Of a DNA stretch of 19,147 bases, positions 1,645-8,093 are shown in pieces (positions within the stretch are counted from its first letter, which is position 1; each line of letters opens with the position of its first letter). The stretch lies in UHGV virus genome UHGV-0126495. One strand, 5' to 3'. This DNA is from a virus. Under the pieces are notes generated by a model that was given only the letters and a program-made list of their open reading frames with translations, had not been told where the DNA came from and did not search any database. The translations under genes and the position numbers were made by a program.

Positions 1645-1670
1645 TTAACGTTTGCTGGTAAAATTGAATA
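1635..1670 (+). promoter_or_regulatory. candidate late promoter (pR'-like) with extended -10
   Basis: TGgTAAAAT at 1656-1664 (TG at -15/-14 plus TAAAAT hexamer) directly after the Q stop; the -35 is weak. Position matches pR' in lambdoid phages. Confidence 0.3.
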
Positions 1671-1720
1671 AAAAAGGGGACGCAAAAACGCCCCCAAGAG
1701 TTTAGAGTAATAAATAACAG

Positions 1721-1750
1721 AAGGTTAAAAAGAAAAGACAAAATGTCTTT
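1721..1750 (-). terminator. candidate intrinsic terminator for the porin transcript
   Basis: Hairpin AAGACA-aaa-TGTCTT (1735-1749); on the minus strand it is followed by TTTCTTTTTAACC. Lies about 85-110 nt downstream of the porin stop. Confidence 0.4.
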
Positions 1751-1781
1751 CTTAATGCAGTGACGTGAGGGCGTCACCCAC

Positions 1782-1822
1782 ATGTTGTGGGAGATAAATA
1801 TCTCCCACAACATATCTTTTTT
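1782..1822 (+). terminator. strong intrinsic terminator (tR'-like) downstream of Q
   Basis: Perfect 13-bp inverted repeat ATGTTGTGGGAGA / TCTCCCACAACAT (1782-1794 and 1801-1813) with 6-nt loop, followed on the plus strand by ATC then TTTTTT (1817-1822). Confidence 0.6.
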
Positions 1823-1833
1823 AATAAAAAGAT

Positions 1834-2931
1834 TTAGAACTGGTAAACCATACCGACAGCAACAATATCGTCGGTGTTTATACCAAGACCTCTGGTGAAA
1901 TCATTTTTGTCAAGCAGGTTGATTTTGTAATCAACGAAAGTAGACATATTTTTGTTGAAGTAATAGGTTGCGCCTACATCAACATATTTAACTAAGTCTT
2001 GATCGCCCCATACTCCGAGATCTTTACCTTTAGATTGCAGGTAAGCCACGGACGGACGCAGCCCAAAATCGAACTGATATTGTGCAACAGCCTCAACGTT
2101 CTGAGCTTTATTAGCGACGAAGCGATCAGCAAATACCGTCATATTCTGGGTTTCAGAATAGGTAGTGGCCAAGTAAATGTTGTTAGCGTCATATTTCAGA
2201 CCAGCGGCCCAAACTTCTGCATTTTTACCGGAAGCAAATACTCCAGGAAGAACTTTCCCTAGATTAACTTGAGTGTCGGTACGGTCAGATTTCGCATAAG
2301 TTGCACCAATACCGAATCCTTCGTATTCATAGGTAGCAGAGAAACCGAAGCCATCACCGTTACCTTCGGTATAGTTATCGAGATCGCTACGATCGTTTTT
2401 GCCTTGGTACTGAGCAGCAAAGTTCAGACCATCAACCAGACCGAAGAAGTCGTTATTACGGTAAGTTGCAACACCAGTTGCACGCTGAGTCATGAATACG
2501 TCGGTTTGAGTCCAAGTATCACCACCGAATTCTGGCAGAACGTCAGTCCACGCACCGATGTCGTATGCTACACCGTAGTTACGGCCATAATCGATGGAGC
2601 CGTAGTCACCGAATTTCAGGCCAGCGAAGGCAAGACGGGTTTTATCTTTGGAAGAACCTTGAGATTCAGCACGGTTGCCTTTGAATTCATATTCCCACTG
2701 ACCGAAACCAGTCAGTTGATCATTGATTTGGGTTTCGCCTTTGAAGCCCAGACGAGCATAAGTTTTGTCACCATCGTGTTTATCGTTAGAGGAGAAGTAG
2801 TGCTTGGCATTAACTTTTCCGTACAGATCCAGTTTGTTGCTGTCTTTGTTATAAATCTCTGCTGCCTGAGCAGACATCGCCATTAATACTGACGCAGCTA
2901 CAGCAGAGATTGCCACTGTTAATTTTTTCAT
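1834..2931 (-). CDS. nmpC: outer membrane porin, OmpC/NmpC/Lc family (prophage-borne lysogenic conversion porin)
   Basis: 365-aa minus-strand ORF with signal peptide [23 protein letters not shown], mature N-terminus AEIYNKD and C-terminal ...VYQF typical of general porins; recalled as very close to E. coli NmpC / phage PA-2 Lc. AGGA 7 nt upstream of the ATG. Convergent with Q, as in DLP12. Confidence 0.9.
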
Positions 2932-3175
2932 CGTGAATCCTTAGTCCTTTTCGGAACTATTATTAAAAAATATTGTCACTGCGGCCTAAATATACATCTA
3001 ATCGGTATGGCTATTTCAAGATATGGAGTTTATTTAATGGTTCAAAGTGTGATCAAGATCTCGTTTATGCGTACTGGTAATTATTGATTGACGATGTTTT
3101 TGTAATGAGAGATGCGTTTCTGAAATGCAATGAAAAGTTATTGTTTTTGTATTTTATAATGTAAATTTTTTGCGT
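2932..3175 (-). promoter_or_regulatory. AT-rich porin upstream region with candidate sigma70 promoter and OmpR-box-like motifs
   Basis: Read on the minus strand: TTGAAA (plus coords 3014-3019), about 17 bp, then TGTATATTT, followed by a roughly 60-70 nt leader. Further upstream TTTACATTATAAAATAC and GAAACGCATCT resemble OmpR-binding boxes of ompC/ompF. Confidence 0.35.
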
Positions 3176-3180
3176 GCTGG

Positions 3181-3194
3181 TTTACGTACGTAAA
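3181..3194. promoter_or_regulatory. perfect 14-bp palindrome TTTACGTACGTAAA (candidate operator)
   Basis: Exact palindrome read directly; overlaps a possible -35 (TTTACG) with TATGAT at 3203-3208 sixteen bp downstream, upstream of the 3265 ORF. Confidence 0.3.
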
Positions 3195-3264
3195 AATTTA
3201 AATATGATGTTAAGAGTGGTCACTTTGCCACACAGCTTAAACCAGCCGCCAAACGGGGTTTTTT

Positions 3265-3573
3265 ATGCCCGAAAAGCGGCGCAGTACGTTAAACGCGCTG
3301 GTGGTTGCGAATACCGGTCTTTCAGCTTGCTGGCTTTTTCGACAAGAGTTATTGGTATGTCACGTTAACCGGAATAAGGGAAAAAGACATGCTAAAACAG
3401 CAGGATATGACCGAAACCGTAATGAATTAAGCGTCACCGAGCCGGCGACCGTCGGGGAAATTGCGCAGAATACGTACCTTTCACGCGAACGCTGTCAGTT
3501 AATACTGACCCAGCTTGTTATGGCGGGTCTGGCAGATTATCAGTTCGGTTGTTACAGACGCCTTCCTCAGTGA
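3265..3573 (+). CDS. hypothetical small DNA-binding protein (C-terminal helix-turn-helix-like segment)
   Basis: 102-codon ORF; C-terminal ATVGEIAQNTYLSRERCQLILTQLVMAGL looks like an HTH recognition unit. Bracketed by a candidate promoter/palindrome upstream and an intrinsic terminator overlapping its stop. N-terminal half is low-complexity, so the true start is uncertain. Confidence 0.35.
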   Translation: MPEKRRSTLNALVVANTGLSACWLFRQELLVCHVNRNKGKRHAKTAGYDRNRNELSVTEPATVGEIAQNTYLSRERCQLILTQLVMAGLADYQFGCYRRLPQ

Positions 3574-3587
3574 AGGCTTTTTTATTT
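3560..3587 (+). terminator. intrinsic terminator
   Basis: GCCTTC-ctcagt-GAAGGC hairpin (3560-3577) followed by TTTTTTATTT; overlaps the stop codon of the 3265..3573 ORF. Confidence 0.6.
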
Positions 3588-3723
3588 GTGGTAATGGGCG
3601 GCTGGTGGGTGTTAGCGGCACCTGCCAGCCATCTGCTCATGCGTTGGGGTCACAAGCAAACCTCAGGCCCATCTGCTTTGCGCAAAAGCGGAATGAGCCT
3701 ATCAGAGAAGTGCTTATTGATCT

Positions 3724-4770
3724 ATGGCCAATACTGTAAAAATATCCAGTTGTGAGTTAATCAACGCTGATTGCCTGGAATTTATCCAGACCTTACCGGA
3801 AAACTCTGTCGATCTGATAGTCACAGACCCGCCATATTTTAAAGTGAAGCCCGAGGGCTGGGATAACCAGTGGAAGGGCGACGATGATTATCTGAAATGG
3901 CTGGATCAGTGTCTGGCGCAATTCTGGCGGGTACTGAAGCCTGCCGGAAGTCTTTATCTGTTCTGTGGTCATCGCCTGGCATCTGACACCGAAATCATGA
4001 TGCGTGAACGCTTTAATGTGCTGAACCACATTATCTGGGCGAAGCCGTACGGACGCTGGAACGGGTGTAATAAGGAAAGTCTGCGGGCGTATTTTCCGGC
4101 AACAGAACGCATTCTGTTTGCTGAACATTATCAGGGGCCATACCAGCCCAAAAATGACGGCTATGCGGCAAAGGGGCGCGAGCTTAAGCAGCACGTCATG
4201 GCCCCGCTGATTTCTTACTTTCGTGATGCGCGTGAATCACTGGGAATAACGTCAAAACAGATAGCGGAAGCCACCGGAAAGAAAAACATGGCTTCGCACT
4301 GGTTTGGTATCAGTCAGTGGCAGTTGCCGAACGAAGGCGATTATCTGAAATTACAGGCGTTGTTTGCGCGTGTTGCAGCAGAAAAACATCAACGAGGGGA
4401 ACTGGAAAAGCCACACCACCAGCTGGTCAGCACATACAGTGAACTGAACCGGCAATATGCCAGTCTGCTGAAGGAGTACAAATCCCTGCGGCGTTATTTT
4501 TCCGTATCGGCTGCCGTTCCGTATACGGATGTCTGGACGCACAAGCCTGTGCAGTATTACCCCGGCAAACATCCCTGTGAGAAACCGGCGGATATGTTGC
4601 GTCAGATAATTACCGCCAGCAGCCATCCGGGAGATTTGGTCGCTGATTTTTTTATGGGGTCGGGGTCAACAATAAAAGCAGCATTATCGCTGGGAAGGCG
4701 TGCAATAGGTGTGGAACTGGAAGAAGATAGATTTAACCAGACTGTAATTGAAATAAAAAATAATCGTTAA
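3724..4770 (+). CDS. orphan DNA methyltransferase, beta-class amino-methyltransferase (probably N6-adenine; N4-cytosine not excluded)
   Basis: 348-aa ORF with motif IV DPPY at nt 3826-3837 near the N-terminus and motif I FFMGSGST at nt 4648-4671 near the C-terminus (IV before I is the beta-class permutation). No restriction endonuclease candidate nearby. Confidence 0.88.
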   Translation: MANTVKISSCELINADCLEFIQTLPENSVDLIVTDPPYFKVKPEGWDNQWKGDDDYLKWLDQCLAQFWRVLKPAGSLYLFCGHRLASDTEIMMRERFNVLNHIIWAKPYGRWNGCNKESLRAYFPATERILFAEHYQGPYQPKNDGYAAKGRELKQHVMAPLISYFRDARESLGITSKQIAEATGKKNMASHWFGISQWQLPNEGDYLKLQALFARVAAEKHQRGELEKPHHQLVSTYSELNRQYASLLKEYKSLRRYFSVSAAVPYTDVWTHKPVQYYPGKHPCEKPADMLRQIITASSHPGDLVADFFMGSGSTIKAALSLGRRAIGVELEEDRFNQTVIEIKNNR

Positions 4771-4939
4771 ATGTGTGTATCATTATTTCTGCATTTTATG
4801 AATAATAGAAATTTATACATATATTTACGAATATTGACACAGTTTTTAATTGAAAAAGTATCTGTCCTCATTAATATTCTTTTTCGGTTCCGAGGGGGAT
4901 GTAAAGCGCGGTCATTTTTATTTTTCCTGAGGAACCAAT

Positions 4940-5015
<76 letters not shown>

Positions 5016-5018
5016 TAT

Positions 5019-5093
<75 letters not shown>

Positions 5094-5456
5094 GCATTTG
5101 AAATAAGCCTTATTGTATTGCAGCACTGGCGTATTTTTATTACGTGGGAGCAGGTTGTTTTGAAAAAGCATTCTGTTCTCTGGCTATGATTTGAGGCCAG
5201 GTTAGCCTCAGTGCTGATTTTTTTACGGCAGCAGAATGGTGCATTGCTGGTGGAGATTTTGTATTTCCTGGCAGGGTCGGTGATGTATCATTCTGGTGTT
5301 GTAAATAACACCATCGGGGCGCTCCTCAGGGCGAGGGTGGTTAAAAGAGTCGGTTTAGCGGGAAACCACAGTATTCATACAGGACGGAATACTTCGGGAG
5401 GCACCCGACGCCTCGATTTTATTACAATTAAAAAATTCATTCCTTGCATTGACCAA

Positions 5457-5480
5457 CCGCCGTATCTGGCGGTTTTTTTT
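5457..5480 (+). terminator. intrinsic terminator (likely end of the tRNA transcription unit)
   Basis: CCGCC-gtatct-GGCGG hairpin followed by eight T (5473-5480). Confidence 0.6.
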
Positions 5481-5490
5481 ATTCTTAATT

Positions 5491-5526
5491 CGAAAAAAGA
5501 AAACACGGACACTGATAATGTCCGTG
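5491..5526 (-). terminator. intrinsic terminator for minus-strand transcription
   Basis: 8-bp stem CACGGACA / TGTCCGTG (5504-5526) with 7-nt loop; on the minus strand followed by TTTTCTTTTTTCG (plus-strand A-run 5491-5503). Confidence 0.5.
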
Positions 5527-5803
5527 TGGCAATGCCATGTAAGTCAGCGATGAATATGGCGCAAAAAAAGCGCGGCTGTCGGATTAACGCCGCGGGACAA
5601 AGTCCGTGAAGAAGAATAAGTATCGGTCTCCTTCCGGAGACGAGTTGATATTACTAAGCTTTAAAAATGGTTTAAATCCTCAGATTGACCTTAATTTCCG
5701 GTAAGTCTTATTTCATTTTCTCCGCGCTACCTCCAGCGCACATCACATCAGGTAACGCCACACAAAAGGCATCTGCGGGTGCCTTTGACGGGTGTTTTTT
5801 TAC

Positions 5804-5829
5804 GGGCCGCTGGTGGCCCTTTTTTATTT
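5804..5829 (+). terminator. intrinsic terminator immediately upstream of the lysis cassette
   Basis: GGGCC-gctggt-GGCCC hairpin followed by TTTTTTATTT; ends about 15 nt before the AGGAGA ribosome-binding site of the 5845 ORF. Confidence 0.6.
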
Positions 5830-5844
5830 ACAGGAGAAAAAAGT

Positions 5845-6237
5845 ATGTCTGAACCCTTGTCCGGTTCCGGCACGGCTGCGGCGCTCGGCGGGGCGACGGT
5901 ATTCGGGCTGTTTACCGGAACGGATTTCGGGATTGTGTTTGGTGCGTTCGCCGGGGCGTTATTTGTGGCAACGATGCCGCAGGCGCTTTCAGCCTGGCGT
6001 GTGGTGGCGCATTTTCTTGTGTCGTTCATTATCGGCGTGCTGGGCGCAGAGGTTCTGGCGTCCTGGCTGGTAAAGCATACAGGGTTTGACGGTGCACCTG
6101 TTGACGCATTGTGTGCAGTACTGGTGTCAGTGGTGTCGGTGAAGATTCTGTCGTTCATCCACCAGCAGGATATCGCATCACTGGTGTCCGGTCTGTTCTC
6201 CCGCCTGCGGGGCGGAGGAGGCGGCAATGTTAAGTAA
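5845..6237 (+). CDS. putative holin (multi-TM small membrane protein, 131 aa)
   Basis: ATG at 5845 preceded by AGGAGA (5832-5837); the longer listed start at 5779 would read through the terminator. Three to four hydrophobic helices and a charged Gly-rich C-tail; first gene of a lysis-type cluster ending in an endolysin. Confidence 0.55.
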   Translation: MSEPLSGSGTAAALGGATVFGLFTGTDFGIVFGAFAGALFVATMPQALSAWRVVAHFLVSFIIGVLGAEVLASWLVKHTGFDGAPVDALCAVLVSVVSVKILSFIHQQDIASLVSGLFSRLRGGGGGNVK

Positions 6238-6502
6238 CCTTCCCGGAGTGCTGAATGTGGCGTTATGTACGGTTATCGTGCTGACGCTCTTTTTTTATCG
6301 TCGTCGTGACTCCAGACACAAACCGCTGATGTCATGGCTGGCCTGGCTGCTGATGCTGCTTTATGGCTTTGCTCCACTCAGCTATCTGTGTGGTCGCCCG
6401 TTAGCAACGGGCTGGCTGGAAGTGTTTTTTAATCTGCTGTTCTGCGTGTTGGTGATACGCGCACGCGGGAACGTCACAAAAATCTTTCCATTGTTGAGGT
6501 GA
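6227..6502 (+). CDS. small three-TM membrane protein (second lysis-cassette component; holin/antiholin-like)
   Basis: ATG at 6227 preceded by GGAGGAGG; overlaps the 3' end of the previous ORF by 11 nt and ends at the endolysin start. Three hydrophobic segments. Confidence 0.5.
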   Translation: MLSNLPGVLNVALCTVIVLTLFFYRRRDSRHKPLMSWLAWLLMLLYGFAPLSYLCGRPLATGWLEVFFNLLFCVLVIRARGNVTKIFPLLR

Positions 6503-6504
6503 AT

Positions 6505-6882
6505 ATGCCGGGTAAATTCAGATTCAGCCGTCGGAGCGAGAAAAATCTGGAGGGCGTCAAACCACAACTGGTTGCTGTCGTTCGCCGTGCCCTTGAGCTG
6601 ACGGAAGTTGATTTCGGTATTACGGAAGGCCTGCGCAGTAAGTATCGCCAGAAACAGCTGGTCGCGGAAGGGAAAAGCCAGACCATGAACAGCCGCCACC
6701 TGACAGGTGATGCGGTGGATGTTGTGGCCTACATTGGCAGCCAGGTGTCATGGGACTGGCCTCTGTACGAGAAAATAGCGCAGGCATTTAAGCAGGCTGC
6801 CGCAGAGCTGGGAACTGCCATCGAATGGGGCGGTGAGTGGCGGTCGTTAAAGGACGGGCCTCACTTTCAGCTGAAACGATAA
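6505..6882 (+). CDS. endolysin, peptidase M15 family (L-alanyl-D-glutamate endopeptidase type)
   Basis: ATG at 6505 preceded by GAGGTGA; the listed GTG start is 6499. Motifs SRHLTGDAVD and DGPHFQL match the zinc-binding signature of M15 peptidases such as phage T5 endolysin. About 125 aa, no signal peptide. Confidence 0.85.
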   Translation: MPGKFRFSRRSEKNLEGVKPQLVAVVRRALELTEVDFGITEGLRSKYRQKQLVAEGKSQTMNSRHLTGDAVDVVAYIGSQVSWDWPLYEKIAQAFKQAAAELGTAIEWGGEWRSLKDGPHFQLKR

Positions 6883-7742: not shown

Positions 7743-8093
7743 ATGCCATCACGAATCCCACGTGCCTGCCGTAAGCGTGGATGCGCAGGTACAACCACAG
7801 ACAATTCTGGTTACTGCGATAAACATCGTGGTGAAGGATGGGCACAGCATCAGCGCGGACTGAGCCGCCACCAGCGTGGATATGGCTCGAAATGGGATGC
7901 CATACGGGTGCGCATACTGAAGCGTGATAATCATCTGTGTCAGAACTGCCTGCGCAATGGGATAGCCGTTGAAGCCAGAACTGTGGACCACATCATTCCG
8001 AAAGCTCATGGTGGCACGGATGCAGACAGTAACCTGCAGAGTCTGTGCTGGCCCTGCCATAAAGCAAAAACTGCGCGCGAACGTATCAACTGA
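7743..8093 (+). CDS. HNH endonuclease (packaging-associated)
   Basis: 116-aa ORF with Cys pairs (CRKRGC...YCDKH; CQNC...CWPCH) and H-N-H residues (DHIIPKAHGG...N); located just upstream of the terminase genes as in HK97-like phages. Confidence 0.88.
   Translation: MPSRIPRACRKRGCAGTTTDNSGYCDKHRGEGWAQHQRGLSRHQRGYGSKWDAIRVRILKRDNHLCQNCLRNGIAVEARTVDHIIPKAHGGTDADSNLQSLCWPCHKAKTARERIN

Follow-up and report, generated by a model that had tools for sequence, protein, structure and literature searches.

An intact M.EcoGII-type, probably non-specific adenine methyltransferase behind a conserved structured RNA leader in the late region of a phiP27-like Escherichia coli prophage

The described systems closest to the DNA methyltransferase gene considered here are M.EcoGI and M.EcoGII from E. 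coli O104:H4 C227-11, which are prophage-borne orphan enzymes of the beta class (Murray et al., 2018; PMC5778455). M.EcoGII methylates adenine in any DNA context (PMC5778455) and also accepts RNA as a substrate, more weakly than DNA (PMC5778455, PMC7544214), and both M.EcoGI and M.EcoGII are reported to be silent in the lysogen, their overexpression slowing growth (PMC5778455). M.EcoGII and the ancestral reconstructions Anc291 and SUPREM all act on DNA, and they modify RNA largely irrespective of its sequence (PMC11551740); the methylase of phage 1720a-02 has been called 'a very similar MTase' (Murray et al., 2018; PMC5778455). For qO111-type Shiga toxin (Stx) 2a phages, the gene order q, 'transcriptional regulator', DNA methylase, tRNAs, stx has been described (PMC8456039, PMC3491183); the methylase is present in these 45-kb phages but missing from the 61-kb q933-type Stx2a phages (PMC8456039), and the gene is therefore accessory. 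The gene studied here lies at 3724–4770 of a 19,147-nucleotide stretch of the UHGV virus genome UHGV-0126495, referred to below as the window, to which all positions refer unless stated otherwise.

The window is part of a lambdoid, phiP27-like E. coli prophage and is, over its whole length, 98.2% identical to a prophage of E. coli strain ETEC1738. It is likely, as we infer for its activity and regulation from characterised relatives and from the layout of the locus, that the gene encodes an intact, M.EcoGII-type non-specific N6-adenine methyltransferase that is made late in a Q-dependent manner, acts against restriction, is controlled by a structured RNA leader and stays silent in the lysogen.

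The open reading frame (ORF) encodes 348 residues, compared with 349 in M.EcoGII, with DPPY (motif IV) at residues 35–38 and FFMGSGST (motif I) at residues 309–316; motif IV is N-terminal to motif I, which is the order of the beta class. The Pfam family PF01555 (N6_N4_Mtase) covers residues 29–339 with an E value of 5e-44 and 151.3 bits (cut-off 26.7), spanning profile positions 1–218 of 221. The class proposed in an earlier reading of the window, made from the sequence alone, was thus correct, although the intervening region that it put at about 200 residues measures 270 residues between the two motifs and is partly catalytic core (residues 39–134). That sequence-only reading had also named degenerate motifs on alignment as grounds for giving up the assignment. 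In an alignment with 110 relatives (76–96% identity), all of the family-invariant columns are kept in this copy, and the catalytic (DPPY) and S-adenosylmethionine (SAM)-binding (FxGxG) motifs are, as read from the alignment, intact rather than degenerate. The residues unique to this allele among the 110 relatives (S109Y, E250K, R301H and I342) all fall in variable columns; residue 109 directly follows the conserved IWAKP motif, where S, W, A or P stands in the rest of the family. The exact protein is present on three metagenome contigs. Its sequence places it in the M.EcoGII family, as an intact N6-adenine methyltransferase of the beta class that depends on SAM.

By sequence, the closest relatives of known structure are M.BceJIV, M.RsrI, M.MboIIA, CcrM and N4-cytosine enzymes, which align only to residues of about 8–146 and 266–340. 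CcrM (6pbd), M.BceJIV (8urk), M.RsrI (1eg2) and M.MboIIA (1g60) have the catalytic fold and motifs in common with this protein; however, they are sequence-specific enzymes of around 20% identity, and their DNA-recognition parts, in the middle or at the C-terminus, cannot be aligned to residues of about 135–280. An AlphaFold model built with 111 relatives (mean pLDDT of 68.9) has a core of alternating strands and helices and a helical middle region at 147–255, and every top match of a Foldseek search against the PDB is a beta-class methyltransferase (E values of about 1e-12, target template-modelling scores of 0.45–0.7). With moderate confidence, a Rossmann-type methyltransferase fold like that of the solved beta-class enzymes is predicted, with a helical target-recognition region at about 147–255; a published M.EcoGII model places this region at 160–237.

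The protein is 92% identical to L24 of phage phiP27 and 86% identical to the methylase of phage 1720a-02. The identity to M.EcoGII is about 85% (296/347, without domain-level insertions or deletions), a value given as approximate because the available M.EcoGII sequence is a machine-read copy with errors and its corrected version was unmatched; the value was checked by way of the 1720a-02 enzyme, with which this copy shares 93% identity. Against the machine-read copy, this protein shows 49 substitutions, of which 12 lie among the 78 positions of the target-recognition region, and it neither gains nor loses residues in the middle domain. With identities of 87% to Anc291 and 73% to SUPREM in addition to the 85% to M.EcoGII, the tested enzymes bracket this protein in sequence. 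Non-specific N6-adenine methylation is its best-supported and likely activity by analogy with these relatives, and given this close relationship to a characterised enzyme that methylates adenine in any context (PMC5778455), the earlier statement that the specificity is unknown is outdated. NCBI names relatives 'site-specific DNA-methyltransferase', but such database names are generic pipeline labels.

The family itself is already known and the gene is an ordinary one, a further allele of a prophage methyltransferase that is very common. A protein search for relatives returned 3,018 matches, 96 phage records contain a family member (94 of them at full length), and among 5,426 complete E. coli genomes, 1,877 (35%) carry the methyltransferase together with its leader, in up to six places per genome. 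Promiscuous adenine methyltransferases are also found in the alpha class, where they include Hia5 and Hin1523. The alpha-class enzymes share non-specific adenine methylation, as reported (Drozdz et al., 2012, cited in PMC5778455), but carry FxGxG first, in the reverse motif order (PMC5778455), and are not known to be family-level homologues of this protein.

The only part of the locus that may be new is a conserved structured RNA leader that abuts the ATG of the methyltransferase. Its helices, P1 (3600–3630), P2 (3634–3658) and P4 (3666–3699), the last enclosing P3 (3675–3689), were set by hand because the RNAalifold consensus shifted between two alignments. The leader in the window folds better than shuffled sequences (z of −3.8), and across genera it is more conserved than the flanking coding DNA, 1-nucleotide (nt) insertions and deletions being present. 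In alignments of mutually related sequences that had been fitted to models already holding these helices, 93.2% of the cells are paired in the four-helix structure, against 22–46% in slid controls; 19 of the 25 pairs have changes on both sides, and 101 cells carry double changes, compared with 16.2 ± 3.7 in shuffles, none of 500 of which reached 101. One P2 pair, for example, occurs as CG (33), UA (12), AU (9) and UG (6). G–U pairs are found on the + strand only, and the structure is therefore assigned to that strand.

A covariance model of the leader, on which the copy in the window scores 130–138 bits, places it against the methyltransferase start in 57 of 80 species-representative loci, including loci from which the small gene usually found upstream is absent, and no match away from a methyltransferase start was found in 0.89 Mb. 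The model also matches before the homologues in Providencia phage PSTRCR_117lys, Klebsiella phage 48ST307, Vibrio phage MAR and N15, where the helix sequences are entirely different and the pairing alone is kept. Of 120 matches to the core pattern in IMG/VR, 116 lie 52–54 nt 5' of the methyltransferase gene, and the four exceptions either border truncated gene copies or sit at the end of a contig. From E. coli phages to Vibrio phages, the leader is thus, on sequence comparison, tied only to this methyltransferase family. A scan of the whole window with Rfam at gathering thresholds gave no match on the leader; with E values up to 10 on 3150–3800, the sole overlap was a minus-strand match to RF03221 (16.5 bits, gathering threshold 82, E value of 3.9), a microRNA family whose match is not credible, and nothing appeared on the + strand. 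Leader sequence strings in literature text matched only unrelated primers, a search of a paper describing 224 motifs gave no methylase-associated enterobacterial motif, and no published description of the leader was found in the literature that could be searched.

The leader would probably act in cis on the translation or stability of the methyltransferase mRNA. There is no Shine–Dalgarno sequence before the methyltransferase ATG, and the junctions between the helices contain the invariant sequences AAUGGGCG, GAACCAAGGCCCA and GAGCCUAUCA. UGGGC could instead pair with GCCCA, and GGUCA with UGAUC beside the AUG, and the start region could thereby alternate between an open and a closed state. 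The alternative fold occluding the start (P0/P5/P6) pairs 93.5% of the cells and is a possible fold compatible with the alignment, but P0 and P5 show no double-sided changes; for a further candidate helix close to the start, AAGCN with N'GCUU, the variable position gives poor support. We tentatively suggest, with slightly less than even confidence, that the leader represents an undescribed class of cis-regulatory RNA, whether ligand-sensing, protein-binding or sensing its own methylation, which gates the translation of a toxic non-specific methylase. How phages silence and then switch on a genome-wide adenine methylase is unexplained in the literature consulted, and an RNA element at the start codon offers a directly testable handle on this; the leader itself is found in roughly one in three complete E. 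coli genomes. Two other readings of the leader were considered. An upstream ORF or leader peptide starting at an invariant AUG (MGGWWVL...) was rejected, as its length varies from 3 to 56 codons, its start is lost in some genera and 1-nt insertions and deletions are common. A DNA operator is disfavoured, since distant relatives keep the pairing with different sequences and the G–U pairs are confined to the + strand.

Upstream of the leader, relatives carry a small gene resembling L23 of phiP27, about 150 nt from the methyltransferase; it stands directly upstream in 105 of the 116 viral loci and in 53 of the 80 species-representative ones, where its identity falls as low as 37–50%. Its stop codon is inside a terminator hairpin in all genera compared, so that ribosomes translating the small gene to its natural stop could interfere with termination and in this way influence how much transcription reads on into the methyltransferase. 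Relative to phiP27, 1720a-02 and ETEC1738, the copy in the window has lost 13 bp after 3419 and is frameshifted, giving the product MLKQQDMTETVMN* with a stop at 3430 after 13 codons, and the listed ORF at 3265–3573 is a chimera of two frames. The deletion may be real decay or a metagenome assembly error.

The lambda pR'–6S RNA–tR' unit and antitermination by Q are established lambdoid biology. The locus resembles this unit, which has a promoter directly downstream of Q, a short terminated transcript and then the late genes (PMC6266700; PMC8456039 for Stx phages), and differs from it in the cargo cassette between Q and the promoter and in a second terminator and a structured leader before the first large late gene. 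The region homologous to phiP27 and the Stx phages starts at about 3207, just inside the promoter-like site; downstream of this site come a gap of about 38 nt, a hairpin with its T-run, and ATGCCCGAAA. The same succession of −35, −10, about 38 nt, hairpin with T-run and ATGCCCGAAA stands directly after Q in Providencia phage PSTRCR_117lys (around 1978–2080 of its stretch), and the N15 record annotates the equivalent unit as −35/−10 and terminator upstream of gp52 (2276–2364 of the extracted N15 stretch). Among relatives the stems of the first hairpin covary (CCGCC/GGCGG, CCCGC/GCGGG, CCTCGC/GCGGGG, ACCGCC/GGCGGT), and compensatory stem changes in other genera are likewise seen for the terminator at 3560–3590 (GCCTCCA/TGGGGGC, GTCGCCA/TGGCGGC, GCTGCCA/TGGCAGT). 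From this layout and conservation, the promoter, short transcript and hairpin appear to be the pR'–tR' unit of this phage group. On the + strand, a consensus scan found no sigma-70-like promoter between the terminator and the ATG (3590–3723), and the same kind of scan found no terminator between the methyltransferase stop and the tRNAs (4771–4939). The layout suggests that the methyltransferase is an accessory gene and the first large gene of a Q-dependent late operon, rather than a moron expressed in the lysogen; its promoter-less position behind terminator-like hairpins fits the silence reported for M.EcoGI and M.EcoGII in lysogens. The features of the locus are listed in Table 1.

Table 1. 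Positions of the methyltransferase gene, its upstream elements and neighbouring features in the window.
Feature	Positions	Strand	Description or evidence
Late antiterminator Q, 127 aa	1261–1644	+	PF06530 Phage_antitermQ, E 5.8e-54; phrog_79 anti-termination protein Q-like; RefSeq annotation of ETEC1738 prophage
OmpC-like porin gene	1834–2931	−	PF00267 Porin_1, E 2.5e-155; annotated ompC in ETEC1738
pR'-like late promoter (TTTACG-16-TATGAT), putative	3181–3208	+	Promoter scan match; comparative layout
First terminator-like hairpin and T-run (tR'-like)	3246–3275	+	Comparative alignment; stem weakened in this copy
phiP27-L23-like winged-helix gene (65 aa in relatives), disrupted	3389–3573	+	phrog_331, E 1.4e-37; weak PF01978 TrmB match
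Intrinsic terminator over the stop codon of the small gene	3560–3590	+	Scan match GCCTTC-CTCAGT-GAAGGC, then TTTTTTATTT
Conserved structured RNA leader, ~130 nt	about 3595–3723	+	Fold z, covariance model, covariation; abuts ATG
Methyltransferase ORF	3724–4770	+	M.EcoGII-type beta-class N6-adenine methyltransferase; ATG start, 348 aa, intact
tRNA-Thr(TGT)	4940–5015	+	ARAGORN; Rfam RF00005 (two tRNAs: 72 and 66 bits)
tRNA-Gly(TCC)	5019–5093	+	ARAGORN; Rfam RF00005; same transcription direction as methyltransferase
Lysis cassette: two holins and M15 endolysin	5779–6882	+	PF16931, PF05449, PF13539; RefSeq annotation

In the sequence of events that we propose, transcription would start in lytic growth at the pR'-like promoter, downstream of the inserted porin cassette, and Q-modified RNA polymerase would read through the hairpins at about 3246–3275 (weakened here) and at 3560–3590. 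Translation would then begin behind the structured leader of about 130 nt, without a Shine–Dalgarno sequence, the leader probably adding a post-transcriptional level of control. The enzyme, to judge from its relatives, would methylate adenines without regard to sequence context, so that the replicating phage DNA would become methylated and the DNA of the progeny would resist the restriction systems of the next host. In the lysogen the methyltransferase would be kept silent because genome-wide methylation is harmful.

Several observations count against this proposal. S109Y, E250K and R301H are found in no other relative, even if the columns concerned are variable, and the confidence of the structural model is moderate, its alignment being shallow in diversity. 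The M.EcoGII query, taken from Supplementary Table S1 of PMC11551740, was machine-read and has visible errors at family-invariant positions, and an exact look-up of a hand-corrected sequence gave no match; the differences from M.EcoGII in the target-recognition region and the 'site-specific' label of the relatives also have to be considered. On the side of regulation, the frameshift in the small gene means that this prophage copy may be abnormally regulated or decaying, the first hairpin was not called by the terminator scan of the window and its fold is unremarkable (z of −0.5), and the promoter and terminator calls are consensus or comparative predictions throughout.

In a rival reading, for which the differences in the target-recognition region speak, the protein would instead be a sequence-specific orphan, Dam-like or with a new motif, whose recognition region has diverged from that of M.EcoGII and which protects against one class of restriction enzyme or acts as a regulator. 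The names given by NCBI to the relatives, and the annotation of N15 gp52 and of ORF17 of Vibrio phage MAR/VHML as adenine-specific modification methylases, are in keeping with such an enzyme, but these names are generic, the identity to M.EcoGII extends over the full length, the middle domain is free of insertions and deletions relative to M.EcoGII, and the protein falls within the range of the largely non-specific M.EcoGII, Anc291 and SUPREM, which makes sequence specificity unlikely. That the enzyme is an orphan agrees with the earlier reading, which had noted the lack of a cognate endonuclease. No restriction endonuclease is present in the window or in the RefSeq annotation across the whole ETEC1738 prophage, and the sole nuclease domain in the window, an HNH domain at 7743–8093, is 3 kb from the methyltransferase and adjoins the terminase genes, for which reason it is read as terminase-associated and not as a restriction enzyme; the locus is therefore not a type II restriction–modification system.

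The same reading had described the gene as a late-region moron that might act epigenetically in the lysogen, and of this the position between Q and the lysis genes holds. An autonomously transcribed cargo gene, methylating the host chromosome or RNA in the lysogen and altering host expression, would be at home in a slot that also houses toxin and other cargo genes, and the weak RNA activity of M.EcoGII would suit it; presence in only some related phages, as is expected of a moron, is also seen, both in the contrast between q933-type and qO111-type phages (PMC8456039) and in the occurrence in 35% of complete E. coli genomes. However, by consensus scan the gene has neither a promoter-like site before its ATG nor a terminator of its own, its GC content (0.50–0.515, against 0.50–0.54 in neighbouring phage genes) is the phage average, and across phages it is conserved in a single block with its leader, the small gene and the pR'-like unit upstream. 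Together with the lack of expression of M.EcoGI and M.EcoGII in the lysogen and the slow growth on overexpression, this makes a true moron quite improbable, and action of the methyltransferase in the lysogen is, by analogy, unlikely. It is very improbable that the gene is a non-functional remnant of a decaying prophage, with an ORF left intact by chance and unexpressed or inactive: the 13-bp frameshifting deletion in the adjacent gene, the degenerate stem of the first terminator, the three residues unique to this allele and, in the ETEC1738 prophage (the nearest relative in a complete genome), a frameshifted integrase and an insertion sequence would fit decay, but the ORF runs to its full length and retains all family-invariant residues, the leader scores highly on the family model, the ORFs of the window's lysis and structural genes are intact and the identical protein recurs on metagenome contigs. 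The preferred reading, an M.EcoGII-type enzyme expressed late against restriction, would call for a correction in annotation, such genes being described as M.EcoGII-type, probably non-specific, late-expressed anti-restriction enzymes and not as 'site-specific' enzymes or as morons of unknown specificity.

The locus is most like those of phiP27 (L24), the qO111-type Stx phages, 1720a-02 and SerU-LTIIb, with which it shares the succession of pR'-like unit, small L23-like gene, terminator, leader, methyltransferase and tRNAs. In phiP27, 1720a-02 and SerU-LTIIb, stx or LT-II genes stand directly downstream of the homologous methylase, whereas the window has no toxin genes after this module; in addition, the small gene is frameshifted here and the porin cassette takes the place of the GIY-YIG nuclease gene that phiP27 has between Q and the promoter, a slot in which 1720a-02 has nothing. 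N15 gp52 and the homologues in Klebsiella phage 48ST307, PSTRCR_117lys and Vibrio phage MAR/VHML (ORF17) are more distant, at 53–63% protein identity. In N15, 48ST307, PSTRCR_117lys and MAR, the gene is also located just upstream of the lysis genes with the same structured leader at its start codon, although, besides the differences in helix sequence, the small upstream gene is often absent. The neighbours of the 48ST307 homologue are annotated as phiKO2 homologues. In N15, the tblastn match to the methyltransferase (2501–3589 of the extracted stretch) starts 234 nt upstream of the annotated start of gp52 and the leader ends at about 2497–2506, so that the deposited gp52 start is probably too far downstream.

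The gene order of the window begins with the C-terminal part of a DnaB-type helicase, followed by Q, the porin gene on the opposite strand, the remnant of the small gene and the methyltransferase; after two tRNAs, an unassigned ORF, two holins, the M15 endolysin and the HNH endonuclease come a P27-type small terminase, the large terminase, portal, protease, capsid and tail genes. Downstream, the variable slot between Q and the lysis genes is bounded by the lysis cassette. An AT-rich spacer follows the methyltransferase (within 4771–5093) and contains a promoter-like site at 4850–4877 ahead of the tRNAs, of which the RefSeq annotation of the ETEC1738 prophage lists tRNA-Gly alone and not tRNA-Thr. 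At 5100–5830, where relatives have stx or LT-II, a 132-residue ORF (5211–5609) without a Pfam or PHROG match may be spurious, and a cluster of terminator-like hairpins is found at 5191, 5398, 5455, 5527–5503 (minus strand) and 5804. The porin belongs to a cargo cassette of about 1650–3180 inserted between Q and the late promoter, with flanks of low GC content (0.34–0.39), minus-strand terminators at 1695–1676 and a palindromic hairpin at 1782–1813, and this cassette resembles a true moron more than the methyltransferase does.

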